64,000 nucleotides of DNA, taken from positions 191,271 through 255,270 of the forward strand of contig JACQIB010000005.1 of assembly GCA_016198755.1 (NCBI GenBank). The letters run 5' to 3'. Source of the DNA: Candidatus Aenigmatarchaeota archaeon (GTDB lineage: Archaea > Aenigmatarchaeota > Aenigmatarchaeia > Aenigmatarchaeales > JACQIB01). The notes beneath the pieces were generated by a model, which did no database searches, was not told the DNA's origin, and saw only the letters and a program-made list of their open reading frames with translations. The translations under genes and the position numbers were made by a program. Positions 32,060 through 34,677 of the stretch are shown here, piece by piece; position 1 is the stretch's first letter, and each line of letters starts with the position of its first letter.

Positions 32060-32590
32060 TTAAGAAACATAGATTATTGTTGTAAACTTGTTGTTTCCTT
32101 CATTAGACTCTGCAATCCTGTTGTCTGGATCAACAAAAGCAATAACCTCGTAGTTGCCGGGTATTTTTGCAGAAACATTGCATGAAGCCTGATATATTTT
32201 CCCTGGCATAGTCTCAAAATAGCCTGTTGGACCTGGGTATACACAAGCATATTTAGCGCTTGAGTTTGTTGGCAAAGAATAATCTACTCTTACACGCACA
32301 CCGGTAACATTTACTTCCCCTGTATTCAGCACATACATTAGAGGTTTTCTGTTTCCATCCTCAAAACTCACTATCTCAACAGTAAGGTCTGGCTTTGGCT
32401 GGATTGTAGTAGTGGTTGTGGTTTTTGCTGTAGTTGCAGTTTCATTGACTATAGTTGCTGTCGTAGTTGTAGGTGAGGCTGCTGTTGTAGTTGTTGTGGT
32501 TGTGTCTGCTACCGCATTCCCGGTTGCTTGTGAAGTGCAGCCTGCTGCCAGCGCAACTAAAATTAAGGCAGTGACAATTAACTTTACCAT
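32060..32590 (-). CDS. Lipoprotein with Thr-rich linker and CARDB domain
   Basis: AAGC; KPDL...VDPDNRIAESNEGNN. Confidence 0.85.
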   Translation of the reverse strand: MVKLIVTALILVALAAGCTSQATGNAVADTTTTTTTAASPTTTTATIVNETATTAKTTTTTTIQPKPDLTVEIVSFEDGNRKPLMYVLNTGEVNVTGVRVRVDYSLPTNSSAKYACVYPGPTGYFETMPGKIYQASCNVSAKIPGNYEVIAFVDPDNRIAESNEGNNKFTTIIYVS

Positions 32591-32623
32591 GCTTTTCCTT
32601 CGTTAGAAATCCTTATAAGCTTA

Positions 32624-32819
32624 TCAGCGCCTGAATTTTGACATCTGCTGAAGCAGGTCTACATGCGTTAAGAAAAGTGAGCGGCAGCAAAATCTTTTCA
32701 CTCCTAAATCATCCATAACTTTCTTTGCCTCCTCTCCGGACTCTACCCTCTTCTGGTAGCCCTCCCAGAGCTGTGCTACTGGCTTCCCGCAGCTAAAGAC
32801 AGCGGATTGGTATCAACAT
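32624..32819 (-). CDS. rpoN: RNA polymerase subunit N (Rpo10), interrupted by a +1 frameshift after codon 7-8
   Basis: ATG TTG ATA CCA ATC CGC TGT C TTT AGC TGC GGG AAG...; +1 frame gives SCGKPVAQLW...LGVKRFCCRSLFLTHVDL; span 196 nt. Confidence 0.9.
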
Positions 32820-32820
32820 T

Positions 32821-34161
32821 CTATCCTTCCCTCCTTAATTCTGTTATTCCTTTTGGTGTCATATAAACTCTCTTTGGATAGTCAGTACACTCAACGTATT
32901 TAAACCTTTCCAAAAATTTAATTTGAGCATATAATTTTCTCCTGTTTATAATTTTAGCCAATTCTGTTATTCTCTTTCCTTCATTATTTTTTACTATATA
33001 TAATATATTGGTGAATTTTTTATCCAAGTGTCCGTCGCCTAAACAAAGCAGTCTTGCTTTGTTTTTTTTATCTTCCTGCTTAAGGAAAGGCAATATTAAA
33101 GTTGAGACTGCTAATGTATTGTTTGTTATCAAAGAACCACCATCATATCTATTAAACATATTATATTTTTTTAAATATTTCTCATAAATCTTTACTTTTT
33201 CCATGTTTTGACAAGCCCATCTAAAATAATTATCCTCGAACGATACATTGCCTTCTGCATCAAATAAACCCGCAAAGAAAATGTTTCTATATGGCAACAG
33301 CCTTAATACTGTATCTAGATTCTTATTAAGGTAGTCGAAAAACTTTTTAAGTATGCCATTTACTGAATATACGCAAACAACCCAATCCCCTTTTGGTAGA
33401 TTTACTCTGGATACTTTACAAAATTTAAAGTGAAAATTAGGTATTTTTAGTTTTTTGGGATTTTTATAAAGGTACAGTTCGTATTTAGGTTTTTGATAAA
33501 TATTATGTTCCAAATATTTATGTGACCAATTAAGTAATGACATAGACTTATTAATTATACCTACTCTTCCACCTCCCACTCTATCGCCACACCAAAGACC
33601 AAAAAAGTAGTGAAAATTAGAATCTAACGATACTTTTCTTGGCAATGTTATAGTAAAATGGTGCTTCTTTCCTTTTGTATAAATTGTGTGTTTTATTGTT
33701 AATTTGTTACCATCTTTTTTTATATTTTCTAAAGTTTTGGTTCCAAAATATACAAGCTTTTTATAAGAATTAAACCATTTCTCTAAATCTATAAAATCTC
33801 CATCTATAACGTCTTCTATGTGGGGTATTTCTGATCTCCATTTTTTAAGTTGTTCTCTTCTGCATGCTCTCCCTATAATTAGACCTTTATGCCTAAGTTC
33901 TTTTGGCTTGTAATATATTACTATATTATTTTGTAATGCATCTTCATTTATTTTGAGTAGTCTTATACATAATTTTAATACTTGTAATGAAATGGCGACA
34001 TTTTGTTTATTTTTATAGGAGTATAGTGATGGACTCGAAATTTTTAATTTCCTTAATAGAAATTTGCGTCCGTATAGATTGATTAATTTGCTGAACAATG
34101 TTGCTCTAAAATCATTTTTAAGAACTATCATTTCATCATTTTCATGATATTTATTTATCAT
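32821..34161 (-). mobile_element. Free-standing LAGLIDADG endonuclease-like gene
   Basis: YFFGLWCGD and FFAGLFDAEG motifs, C-terminal wHTH-like segment; visibly AT-richer than flanks; splits rps9-rpoN. Confidence 0.8.
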
Positions 34162-34236
34162 ATAATTACCTTAATACTTACATCTTATAGGTATTAGAAT
34201 ACTGACTTAAATATATTAATATATTGTAAAGTATAT

Positions 34237-34677
34237 TTAGCGCTTACTGCGTTGTTTATGCCTGCGTGGCCCGGCTTTTGACCTTGAAGGCTTGTGAGGC
34301 TCGTTTCTTCTGAAATCTGAAACTAAAAGTGTTCTGTCATACTGTAAAAAGGGCTGTTTAAGATCCTTATGAAAACCTAACAAAGAAAGTGCGATTGCCT
34401 GCCTTACTGCTTCAGCCTGGCCAATAATTCCCCCGCCTGAAACATTAACTGAAATGTCAACATCTTTTCCCTTTTCACCAGCCAAAATCAATGGCTCGCT
34501 CATCATTAACCTTGGAAGCTCTGGAAAAACTTCAAGTGGAGCAGAGTTCACAACAACCTTTCCTGTCCCAATCCTTGCAACCGCGCGTGCAATAGCAGCC
34601 CTTCTTGCACCGGTAACCAAAACCCTTTTCTCAGGCTTTTTTTTCTGCTCTTTTTTCTCTGTTTGCTGATTTTCCAT
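34237..34677 (-). CDS. rps9: 30S ribosomal protein S9
   Basis: GGGIIGQAEAVRQAIA, YDRTLLV.D.R, QRSKR. Confidence 0.97.
   Translation of the reverse strand: MENQQTEKKEQKKKPEKRVLVTGARRAAIARAVARIGTGKVVVNSAPLEVFPELPRLMMSEPLILAGEKGKDVDISVNVSGGGIIGQAEAVRQAIALSLLGFHKDLKQPFLQYDRTLLVSDFRRNEPHKPSRSKAGPRRHKQRSKR

Follow-up and report, generated by a model that had tools for sequence, protein, structure and literature searches.

How does an archaeal cell obtain Rpo10, a core subunit of its RNA polymerase, when the gene for it, rpoN, is closed by a stop codon almost directly after its start? The question is raised by the window, a stretch of 64,000 nucleotides from a Candidatus Aenigmatarchaeota contig, where the rpoN ATG (32819-32817, minus strand) is followed by six codons up to TGT (32801-32799), and then by CTT (32798-32796) and TAG (32795-32793). 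By sequence, codons 1-7 (MLIPIRC; 32799..32819, minus strand) are read in frame 0, with the body of the gene, codons 8-64 plus stop (32624..32797, minus strand), found in the +1 frame. Starting from TTT at 32797, this frame yields FSCGKPVAQLWEG...FRR, 57 residues ending at a stop at 32626-32624, and the piece matches the Pfam family RNA_pol_N (PF01194) with 75.4 bits across model positions 7-57 of 58, the curated cut-off being 26.9 bits. The extra base is a C at 32798, the first position of the candidate +1 shift site CTT TAG (32793..32798, minus strand), and the +1 frame holds no start codon between the upstream TGA and the Phe codon. Cys7 is encoded in frame 0 and Cys10 together with the CC pair in frame +1, so that only a +1 shift can join them in one polypeptide; Cys7, Cys10, Cys44 and Cys45 are the residues that we take to form the zinc motif CxxC...CC of Rpo10. 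Both the coordinates and the Pfam score agree with an initial annotation of this DNA, which had described rpoN as stopping at CTT-TAG after eight codons and continuing intact in the +1 frame. A search for a second rpoN, as suggested there, returned no further copy above the cut-off in the own assembly (890,842 bases, 89% complete), leaving one copy only. Decoding of TAG as an amino acid was considered and rejected, as the codons that follow TAG in frame 0 do not resemble Rpo10 and run into a further stop, and as TAG is an ordinary stop in this genome, terminating 127 of 544 long ORFs; TAG followed by C is the rarest TAG context among these (21 of 127).

A single surplus base in one metagenome-assembled genome (MAG) could reflect a sequencing or assembly error, the main alternative of the initial annotation, and our check was made on contigs. 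Positions 32560-34300 were recovered in the contigs of four out of four runs, one contig in each (depths 64.7, 10.8, 12.6 and 5.78), with no other letters and no gaps; the four per-run assemblies belong to one study, possibly the source of the window itself, and their agreement is weak on its own. Other contigs of the same runs match 32781-32820 with two to four other letters, likewise gap-free. Furthermore, 17 genomes (the window's own and 16 others) and one metagenome contig have one base inserted immediately behind the Cys7 codon, the 17 additional alleles stemming from different families and carrying differing inserted bases at the same place, and none of the 30 intact rpoN alleles examined has it. 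Because the insertion recurs at the same place in independent genomes, we regard an error as refuted, its remaining probability being negligible.

The 18 shifted alleles were assigned to two types. Type A (n=13) reads CGC TGY NTT TAG, with CTT (ten alleles), TTT (two) or ATT (one) in front of the TAG, and the CTT TAG C of the window is shared by ten of the 13 in all; a conserved site in related MAGs was among the checks that the initial annotation proposed. Type B (n=5) reads TGC TTT followed by CAG, CTC or CAC, and has no stop codon at the site. These alleles derive from a phylum sample of 371 genomes, 338 of them with rpoN, where the rpoN 5' ends were inspected in part of the 338; the genomes compared are MAGs, 65-97% complete. 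A pattern scan that tolerated one mismatch matched 71 of the 371 genomes and was mostly noise, with the reversed control often matching too, and six inspected one-mismatch places (L065, L072, L073, L087, L088 and L089) lay off rpoN; only the exact matches were followed, ten of the 11 being at rpoN and that of G032 elsewhere. At E <= 0.001 no second rpoN was detected in 16 of the 17 genomes with a shifted allele, all incomplete MAGs, and G117 has one.

Inspection of the surroundings points to the origin of the extra base. Gene order in the window follows that of relatives, rpl13-rps9-rpoN, where genomes without insertion have the rps9 stop and then the rpoN ATG within a few bases. In the window, an endonuclease gene is inserted between rpoN and rps9 (ribosomal protein S9; 34237..34677, minus strand, from the ORF list), the latter being the gene that directly precedes rpoN in insertion-free genomes. 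More precisely, the LAGLIDADG endonuclease gene is located between rpoN codons 7 and 8, and the 3' end of the cassette brings its own Shine-Dalgarno element, ATG and codons 1-7, therefore the host rpoN retains a start. The Shine-Dalgarno GGAGG for this new start (32830..32834, minus strand) sits inside the last codons of the endonuclease gene, whose TAG stop (32823-32821) is found one base ahead of the rpoN ATG. At the other side, upstream of the endonuclease, a decayed copy of codons 1-7 is present (ATT CTA ATA CCT ATA AGA TGT, ILIPIRC; 34180..34200, minus strand), followed by AAG TAT TAA and giving a sub-threshold RNA_pol_N match of 12.4 bits; judged by its sequence, this is where rpoN originally began, now displaced, and it marks the insertion's left border. 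In six of six loci among the full-length ones listed, a comparable remnant is found ahead of the endonuclease ATG; four of these remnants lack an ATG, three lack the Cys codon (TAT, CAT and TAT instead), and one has Arg replaced by Gly. The single extra base falls exactly on the border between cassette and host gene, and the shift site lies 23-28 nt 3' of the endonuclease stop codon in all seven full-length loci. An intron or intein was rejected as a description of the insertion, as the upstream copy runs into stops behind its Cys codon and is mostly without ATG, and as the endonuclease has an ATG of its own. A fusion made by ribosomes that read through the endonuclease stop into rpoN was likewise rejected, since it would lack Cys7 and since the two frames differ in the window, which is the exception in this respect: they coincide in eight of the nine endonuclease-bearing type A loci.

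All shifted alleles found carry the cassette or a relic of it. That the frameshift is confined to such alleles points to a selfish-element origin rather than to host regulation. Seven of the 18 have a full-length endonuclease ORF, four a partial or contig-cut one, and seven have none that is detectable (G117, G184, G233, G235, G207, G176 and G177). The latter retain the junction block, in type A as GGAGGGAAGGAC-A-ATG and in type B as a block of its own, and in G233 and G235, two species of one genus, the shifted allele outlives the endonuclease. In G170 and G181 an endonuclease tail of about 76 residues (an 84-codon open frame) is left, and rpoN is in frame. A shifted allele can thus persist after loss of the endonuclease, and the frame is restored in two genomes.

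The inserted gene (32821..34161, minus strand) encodes a free-standing, double-motif LAGLIDADG homing endonuclease of 446 amino acids, with a G+C content of 28.3% as compared to 40.7% for the window. Its match to Pfam LAGLIDADG_3 reaches 16 bits, under the 22.5 cut-off, and precomputed PF14528 matches are found for seven among the 120 homologues listed. The AlphaFold2 model (mean pLDDT 92.6) has the double alpha-beta-beta-alpha-beta-beta-alpha core fold, with PI-PfuI (E 1.4e-5) and I-DmoI (E about 3e-5) as best Foldseek matches and a TM-score of 0.54-0.60 when normalised to I-DmoI. D193 (in GLWCGD) and E303 (in GLFDAEG) do not vary across the 30 aligned homologues, and by analogy we take them to be the catalytic acidic residues at the end of each LAGLIDADG helix. 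Considering the confidence of the model, the PI-PfuI/I-DmoI fold and these invariant residues, the enzyme looks active. It shares with the archaeal endonucleases I-DmoI and PI-PfuI the fold (Foldseek E 1.4e-5 to 1e-4), two LAGLIDADG helices with an acidic residue on each and a sporadic, site-specific distribution, but is free-standing outside any intron or intein, about 170 residues longer at the N-terminus, equipped with a helix-turn-helix-like C-terminal tail, and under the Pfam cut-off. Distribution is patchy: the gene is present in two of 42 genomes in the order, and in the phylum as a whole in 13 of 371; of its 14 match places, 12 adjoin rpoN at the same codon, and the remaining two are cut by contig ends. 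The endonucleases at the rpoN locus are only 40-53% identical. In total, 180 homologues were recovered at E <= 1e-5, and no relatives were found in viral contigs. By the names among the matches listed, homologues also occur in other DPANN phyla.

We then turned to selection. All 16 shifted rpoN bodies tested are open over 56 codons, with median pN of 0.281, pS of 0.836 and pN/pS of 0.33, as compared to 0.31 in 30 intact genes; to judge from these values, purifying selection on the +1-frame body equals that on intact genes. On the other hand, synonymous variation is suppressed at the 5' end: pS over codons 2-7 is 0.21 in the 13 type A alleles versus 0.78 in the 30 intact ones, and over codons 13-63 it is 0.85 in both alike. 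All 13 type A alleles have CGC as codon 6, compared to two of 30 intact ones, and AGY as codon 9, compared to 12 of 30. Across the same 13 alleles, GGAGGGAAGGA shows little or no variation, and a block of about 45 nt that comprises the Shine-Dalgarno, the ATG, seven codons, the shift site and CTG (32790..32834, minus strand) has nearly invariant nucleotides in type A, while the endonucleases next to it have diverged to 40-53% identity. Residue 8 of the intact alleles is M, I, F, L or P, and Leu, Ile or Phe should therefore be tolerated at the slip.

Does the junction contain known stimulators of frameshifting? The initial annotation was correct in noting that no internal Shine-Dalgarno lies just upstream of the shift site, where the sequence is CCA ATC CGC TGT; the sole such element is at least 31 nt upstream and serves initiation. 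A conserved downstream RNA structure at the site was not found: the only consensus helix returned by RNAalifold pairs the Shine-Dalgarno region with the shift region, is weak (-7.65 kcal/mol), and has one compensatory pair out of 11, and the single-sequence fold of the site has z = -1.8. For the tRNA genes of the own genome, ARAGORN reports nine without introns and 14 with introns allowed, and Rfam 16; a tRNA-Leu for CUN is not among the genes found by either, and none of the tRNA genes lies within the window.

We next weighed how else the split frame might be explained. It is distinctly unlikely, in our view, that the endonuclease or its insertion has turned the shifted rpoN into a damaged pseudogene, with Rpo10 being dispensable or supplied from an unassembled copy. 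The presence of an intact second copy next to the shifted one in G117 would fit this explanation, as would the sole rpoN of G098, which lacks about the first nine codons and hints that broken rpoN genes do occur in MAGs of the clade, and the incompleteness of all genomes compared leaves room for missing copies. Against it, the other 16 genomes have no further copy, the bodies remain open with the pN/pS of intact genes although pS is saturated (0.84), the start, the Shine-Dalgarno and the shift site are conserved far beyond the neutral expectation, and the allele survives endonuclease loss in the two species represented by G233 and G235. Correction at the RNA level, either by removal of an archaeal bulge-helix-bulge or group I intron (with the endonuclease gene inside), which would join the upstream copy of the seven codons to the TTT, or through loss of the extra base in RNA editing or transcriptional slippage, appears very improbable. 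The upstream copy does end exactly where exon 1 would end, and LAGLIDADG-bearing archaeal introns are described for rRNA genes (I-DmoI). Such an exon would however lack its ATG in four and its Cys codon in three of the six upstream copies, and would have Gly for Arg in one, while the conserved Shine-Dalgarno and ATG of the cassette would be needless for an intron, and no Rfam family matches 32300-34500 at E <= 1. The T run is just three bases in 11 of 13 type A alleles, shorter than known cases of polymerase slippage require.

A translational correction other than P-site slippage at a stop codon is also unlikely. Here, a tRNA that reads four bases would be involved, or a Phe-tRNA would bind out of frame to the +1 UUU or UUC with tRNA-Cys in the P site, giving RC-F-SCGK. 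In favour of such a correction, the +1 codon specifies Phe in 18 of 18 alleles (TTT in 13 of type A, TTC in five of type B), Phe is residue 8 in four of the 30 intact alleles, and type B has no stop at the site; the tRNA inventory, moreover, differs between methods (14 in ARAGORN, 16 in Rfam). The skipped base varies (C, A or T), therefore no single four-base codon fits. As for out-of-frame binding, the 0-frame codons CTT and ATT of type A are common codons of this genome (23.5 and 28.2 per thousand), and so no pause favouring it is expected, and the fixed AGY at codon 9 of type A is what creates the TAG.

Slippage at the site is hence the reading that we prefer, and Rpo10 is probably made only if ribosomes slip forward by one base, as suggested by the sequence comparisons. 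Overall, we consider it reasonably likely that the locus is one mobile cassette of endonuclease and recoding site, the extra base breaking the target of the enzyme and an obligatory +1 frameshift (on NUU-UAG or UUU-C) restoring Rpo10. A homing endonuclease cassette would have moved into the 5' end of rpoN in DPANN archaea, leaving one extra base. Ribosomes would initiate at the cassette ATG and read MLIPIRC-L; while the A site holds a UAG that is decoded slowly, the peptidyl-tRNA on NUU (here CUU) may slip +1 onto UUU, and reading would resume at AGC to give MLIPIRC(L)SCGK..., a product that keeps the zinc CxxC. In the second lineage, type B, the slip would be from UUU to UUC without a stop codon; there, sense codons occupy the A site, which counts against the reading, as does the absence of known stimulators, and the two types may differ in mechanism. 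By analogy with phage T4 and from the position of the base, the insertion would be central in the endonuclease target and would block cutting of the site that the duplicated 5' end rebuilds, with frameshifting as the price paid by the host for a protected site.

The chances seem evenly balanced for a broader version, in which selfish DPANN LAGLIDADG cassettes have taken over the start of an essential gene for RNA polymerase, protect themselves by one base, depend on an efficient +1 shift for which the junction of about 45 nt is a new archaeal signal, and leave behind shifted alleles that are kept as endonuclease-resistant. The original 5' end would decay, and therefore the host could not lose the start of the cassette, and shifted alleles that outlive the endonuclease would be retained for their resistance to endonucleases that still circulate in the community. 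If true, rpoN would be the first archaeal case of a core cellular gene with an obligatory +1 frameshift; our literature searches found no earlier description of such an rpoN cassette or frameshift.

If the frameshift is real, it represents a +1 frameshift that occurs naturally and is conserved in a core cellular archaeal gene, with the junction of about 45 nt as a defined candidate signal, and a simple model for how a selfish element locks into an essential gene. The strategy of combining an endonuclease with a recoding insert, so far one of T4-like phages, would then have a second, independent origin in cellular archaea, with a single base as its minimal form. There would be practical consequences too: gene callers would overlook rpoN or annotate it as a pseudogene in 17 or more of the 338 rpoN-bearing genomes of the phylum sample, and rpoN is a small marker gene in archaeal marker sets. 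The endonuclease family would moreover provide new candidate meganucleases with a known target region.

Among the known systems that resemble the locus is bacterial prfB, encoding RF2, with a programmed +1 frameshift at the motif CUU-UGA-C. Both sites have a slippery CUU, an in-frame stop and a C, the movement of tRNA-Leu from CUU to UUU would restore the frame, and the site is conserved across species. In rpoN the stop is UAG rather than UGA, the SD-like stimulator that prfB has 3 nt upstream is missing, and the site is eight codons from the start; unlike in prfB, the P-site codon may also be AUU or UUU, and five alleles are stop-free. Since Rpo10, unlike RF2, does not read the stop codon, an autoregulatory loop is absent. 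This bears on the initial annotation as a whole: the need for a +1 shift at CTT-TAG-C that keeps the zinc CxxC is supported by the comparison of alleles, but the proposed RF2-like link between RNA polymerase supply and termination efficiency is not supported, in view of the nature of the product, the absent stimulator and the five of 18 shifted alleles without any stop at the site, and the cassette context had been missed.

For Archaea, the portions consulted of a review mention few frameshift cases, mostly -1 or viral (PMC5009743). The same portions describe the 'savior indel', an indel that protects from an external threat and is tolerated through compensatory frameshifting, in herpesvirus thymidine kinase (PMC5009743). 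As there, ribosomes at rpoN would frameshift often enough to supply the product; in contrast to that example, protection would be from a homing endonuclease, the gene encodes a core subunit of the polymerase, and many lineages have kept the indel over long evolutionary time. A further precedent is T4 mobA/gene 60, where, in the parts of the sources consulted, the insert disrupts the site of the enzyme and prevents self-cleavage, and where cassettes of this type lose the endonuclease with the bypass kept and later lose the bypass (PMC5009743; bioRxiv 10.1101/2022.08.31.505936). The two loci have in common a free-standing homing endonuclease within an essential, conserved gene, an adjacent non-coding insert that the ribosome must overcome, a stop or 'hungry' codon at the take-off point, and the stages of decay, with the endonuclease lost first and the recoding later. 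They differ in that the rpoN locus is on an archaeal chromosome and the T4 cassette in a phage, in the enzyme (LAGLIDADG versus HNH), and in the insert, 1 nt overcome by a +1 shift as compared to 50 nt bypassed between matched take-off and landing codons. Unlike in T4, rpoN is not split into two proteins, its first seven codons, Shine-Dalgarno and ATG being duplicated and supplied by the cassette. With these differences, the rpoN cassette would be an archaeal counterpart of T4 mobA/gene 60.

The rpoN gene of the window, coding for the RNA polymerase subunit Rpo10, is split between two frames on the minus strand, in full agreement with the initial annotation: an ATG at 32819 opens a short frame 0, MLIPIRCL, which ends at a TAG (32795-32793), and the body of 57 residues (FSCGKPVAQLWEG...FRR) lies in the +1 frame, from a TTT at 32797 to a stop at 32626-32624. 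The body scores 75.4 bits against Pfam RNA_pol_N (cut-off 26.9), covering positions 7-57 of the 58-position model, and its frame has no start codon between the upstream TGA and the Phe codon. It is the only rpoN above the cut-off in the source assembly (890,842 bases, 6 contigs, 89% complete). Directly downstream, on the same strand, a 176-residue ORF (32060-32590) displays a signal-like N terminus up to LAAGC and then a long Thr-rich run (TTTTTTAASPTTTTAT...), and may encode a surface lipoprotein.

A weak second match to the rpoN profile (12.4 bits, model positions 1-25) is located about 1.4 kb upstream in the source assembly. Just downstream of rps9 (34237-34677, minus strand), rpoN codons 1-7 occur a second time, in an A+T-rich version (34200-34180, minus strand) that reads ILIPIRC, ATT replacing ATG, and continues as AAG TAT TAA. 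The interval from this remnant to the rpoN ATG holds an ORF of 446 residues (32821-34161, minus strand), which terminates one base ahead of the ATG and has the GGAGG serving rpoN within its last codons; at 28.3%, its G+C content is below that of the window (40.7%) and of the rpoN body (48.9%). Pfam LAGLIDADG_3 matches the ORF below threshold (16 bits, 22.5 needed), and an AlphaFold2 model built on 30 homologues (mean pLDDT 92.6) is grouped by Foldseek with monomeric double-motif LAGLIDADG enzymes, with matches to PI-PfuI (E 1.4e-5) and I-DmoI (E ~3e-5, TM-score 0.54-0.60 normalised to I-DmoI). All 30 sequences share D193 (in GLWCGD) and E303 (in GLFDAEG). The ORF encodes a free-standing homing endonuclease and interrupts rpoN between codons 7 and 8; the old 5' end of rpoN is displaced upstream, and a replacement SD, ATG and seven codons are provided at the 3' end of the endonuclease gene, forming with the extra base a single cassette. 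One homologue, P0095 (36% identical), carries the source name of a Paceibacterota bacterium (CPR), not of an archaeon, which may reflect mis-binning or cross-domain transfer.

The arrangement is not confined to the source genome. Among the 41 genomes of its order, 39 possess rpoN, and the match starts at model position 7 only in the source genome and in G027 (G-numbers denote the genomes compared, L-numbers individual loci). G027, from another family, carries rpl13, rps9, a remnant IIPVRYK followed by a stop, a 446-residue endonuclease ORF of 53% identity, and the junction ATG ATT ATA CCG GTC CGC TGT ATT TAG, the Rpo10 body continuing in +1. Across the order the endonuclease is present in 2 of 42 genomes, and across the phylum in 13 of 371, with two more loci from genome and metagenome contigs; 12 of the 14 places matched in the phylum scan adjoin rpoN, and two are cut by contig ends. 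Shifted alleles were sought via endonuclease matches, exact junction-motif matches and low-scoring rpoN matches, and rpoN matches were also fully listed for two families, yielding a lower bound of 18 alleles (17 genomes and one metagenome contig). The match starts at position 7 in 8 of the 41 genomes with rpoN in one family and in 3 of 64 in a second, one of these three (G098) being truncated. Phylum-wide, rpoN was detected in 338 of 371 genomes; the best 150 matches all begin at positions 1-3, and the 192 further ones were inspected in part.

All 18 shifted alleles bear the extra base directly after the Cys7 codon, the +1 codon being TTT or TTC, and none of the 30 intact alleles read has it. 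Thirteen, referred to as type A, conform to ATG, NNN NNN CCN NTC, CGC TGY, NTT (C in ten, T in two, A in one) and TAG YTG; the CTT-TAG-like site that the initial annotation proposed to look for in related MAGs thus recurs as NTT TAG in 13 of 18. The five type B alleles read TGC TTT and then CAG, CTC or CAC, without a stop at the site and with the next stop 3-4 codons on. Four of these five (L052, L094, L095, L106) share the block GAGGTG(G/A)T(A/T)ATGTGATCATACCG(A/G)TCCGTTGCTTTC with a GTG start, beside which an ATG-TGA mini-frame is found in the body frame. In 8 of the 9 endonuclease-bearing type A loci (L033, L040, L041, L043, L044, L046, L048, L049) the endonuclease ORF ends on the TGA of an ATGA in which it overlaps the ATG of rpoN, and it shares its reading frame with the rpoN body, from which one or two stops separate it; the window alone departs from this, with a single base between the TAG and the ATG. 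The overlap suggests coupling of rpoN to the endonuclease ORF by termination-reinitiation.

It is this comparative evidence that rules out a one-nucleotide assembly error, previously considered the main alternative. In addition, 32560-34300 is present without a differing letter or gap in one contig of each of four runs (depths 64.7, 10.8, 12.6 and 5.78), evidence that is weak taken alone, as it consists of contigs, not reads, of a single study that is possibly the window's own source. Further contigs of the same runs match 32781-32820 only, gapless and with 2-4 differing letters, and then diverge; other populations therefore share the junction, including the extra base. Within the endonuclease gene, a short stretch close to the second LAGLIDADG motif (33242-33282) has at least 90% identity with contigs of other organisms in these runs, one contig matching both this stretch and the junction block.

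The shifted bodies are open over 56 codons in 16 of 16 cases (G176 and G177, found later, were not counted). Their pairwise medians (pN 0.281, pS 0.836, ratio 0.33) resemble those of 30 intact genes (0.265, 0.855 and 0.31); synonymous sites are saturated, but the protein is no less conserved than in intact genes, unlike what is expected of a pseudogene. No second rpoN was detected at E <= 0.001 in 16 of the 17 genomes with a shifted allele; G117 has an intact second copy. That the shifted gene is nevertheless a pseudogene, as the truncated rpoN of G098 and the incompleteness of all MAGs concerned could indicate, is quite improbable given the selection data, the conserved start and shift site, and the missing second copy. 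Nor is the endonuclease gene likely to reside in an intron: the cassette brings an SD and an ATG of its own, Rfam yields no matching family, and of six upstream copies listed four lack the ATG and three the Cys codon. Removal of the extra base by transcriptional slippage is also unlikely, since the site offers a run of three T only, shorter than is known to support such slippage. A small probability attaches to two other translational events, out-of-frame Phe-tRNA binding and four-base decoding, either of which would place Phe at residue 8.

The junction is constrained at the nucleotide level. Codons 2-7 have a pS of 0.21 in the 13 type A alleles versus 0.78 in 30 intact ones, while pS is 0.85 for codons 9-12, and for codons 13-63 in type A and intact alleles alike. 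Codon 6 is CGC in 13/13 type A versus 2/30 intact alleles, codon 7 TGT in 11/13 versus 12/30, and codon 9 AGY in 13/13 versus 12/30. The conserved block spans from the SD to TAG-CTG and stops at the border of the host sequence. Recent common descent cannot account for this block, since identity among the endonucleases of type A loci is only 40-53%; the block probably has a cis-acting function, as a frameshift signal or in initiation control. A single consensus helix was obtained, between the SD region and GUCCGCUGUCUUU, and it is weak (-7.65 kcal/mol, 1/11 pairs compensatory).

Aggregated, we consider a cassette combined with ribosomal frameshifting the likely reading of the rpoN locus, lending support to the +1 shift originally proposed; from the observed architecture, recurrence, selection on the body and site conservation, we infer the remaining steps of the mechanism. 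TAG is an ordinary stop, ending 127 of 544 ORFs of at least 200 codons in a crude call of the source genome, and C is the rarest base after it (21/127). With NUU in the P-site and UAG-C in the A-site, the peptidyl-tRNA would slip onto UUU. In bacterial prfB, the +1 shift is likewise a slippage of peptidyl-tRNA at a stop, and NUU-to-UUU slippage at the rpoN stop would be the same event. Residue 8 would become Leu (own allele), Ile or Phe, all of which are tolerated, given that M, I, F, L or P occupies this position in intact alleles. In type B, slippage from UUU to UUC would retain full tRNA-Phe pairing without a stop. ARAGORN (introns allowed) recovers 14 tRNA genes in the source MAG and Rfam 16, a set that is either very incomplete or unusual and contains no tRNA-Leu for CUN, the family that includes CUU; an ARAGORN tRNA-Trp with a 2,196-nt intron (G000:C5:146378-148666) is absent from the Rfam list.

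The regulatory rationale initially offered, linking RNA polymerase supply to termination efficiency, found no support, and a selfish-element origin takes its place. The extra base coincides exactly with the point of insertion, which for LAGLIDADG enzymes is the centre of the target. If this base were absent, codons 1-7 in their duplicated form, joined to codon 8 onward, would recreate a full target beside the endonuclease gene.

The loci resemble successive steps of a decay that begins with a complete cassette, proceeds through loss of the endonuclease while the shift persists, and ends when the shift too is lost. The endonuclease is full-length in 7 of 18 shifted alleles (own, G027, G108, L041, G171, G187, G202), partial or truncated at a contig end in four (G195, G284, G105, G163), and not found by tblastn in the available upstream DNA in seven (G117, G184, G233, G235, G207, G176, G177). 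Among the latter, four type A alleles retain the cassette junction GGAGGGAAGGAC-A-ATG and three type B alleles their junction block. In G170 and G181, an endonuclease tail of ~76 residues (84-codon open frame) precedes an in-frame rpoN that departs from the type A block at synonymous sites. These two loci (G170:C20, L050; G181:C65, L051), from different genera, are identical across the tail remnant and rpoN start, as far as the ~120 nt and protein printed reach, which may reflect recent transfer or binning overlap. G098, a congener of G108 and G105, has an rpoN from which roughly the first nine codons are missing, and no second rpoN was found in this 86%-complete MAG; it looks like the whole cassette was deleted and the functional start with it. 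On its contig (G098:C12, L092, minus strand, ~1460-1500 of the reverse complement), rps9 is followed by a remnant-like stretch to AAGTAT that runs straight into GC GGA AAA.

Full-text searches of the literature turned up neither a frameshifted rpoN/Rpo10 nor a LAGLIDADG cassette in the rpoN of DPANN archaea; in the available portion of a 2026 preprint on the phylum, frameshifts are counted only as an assembly-quality measure, and rpoN, Rpo10 and LAGLIDADG do not occur. The closest precedent is phage T4, where a homing endonuclease (mobA) lies beside the translational bypass of gene 60, and where the insert is reported to break up the enzyme's own site and so to avert self-cleavage. According to the accessible parts of two accounts, T4 relatives have lost the endonuclease while keeping the bypass, and later lost the bypass (PMC5009743; bioRxiv 10.1101/2022.08.31.505936), and indels rescued by compensatory frameshifting are termed 'savior' indels (PMC5009743). 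By analogy, the rpoN case fits both ideas, with protection from cleavage as the putative benefit. Homing endonucleases with recoding cassettes and stop-codon-assisted +1 shifts are already known; new here is an archaeal, chromosomal cassette in which the enzyme is of the LAGLIDADG type, the insert is one base, and the start of the host gene has been captured.
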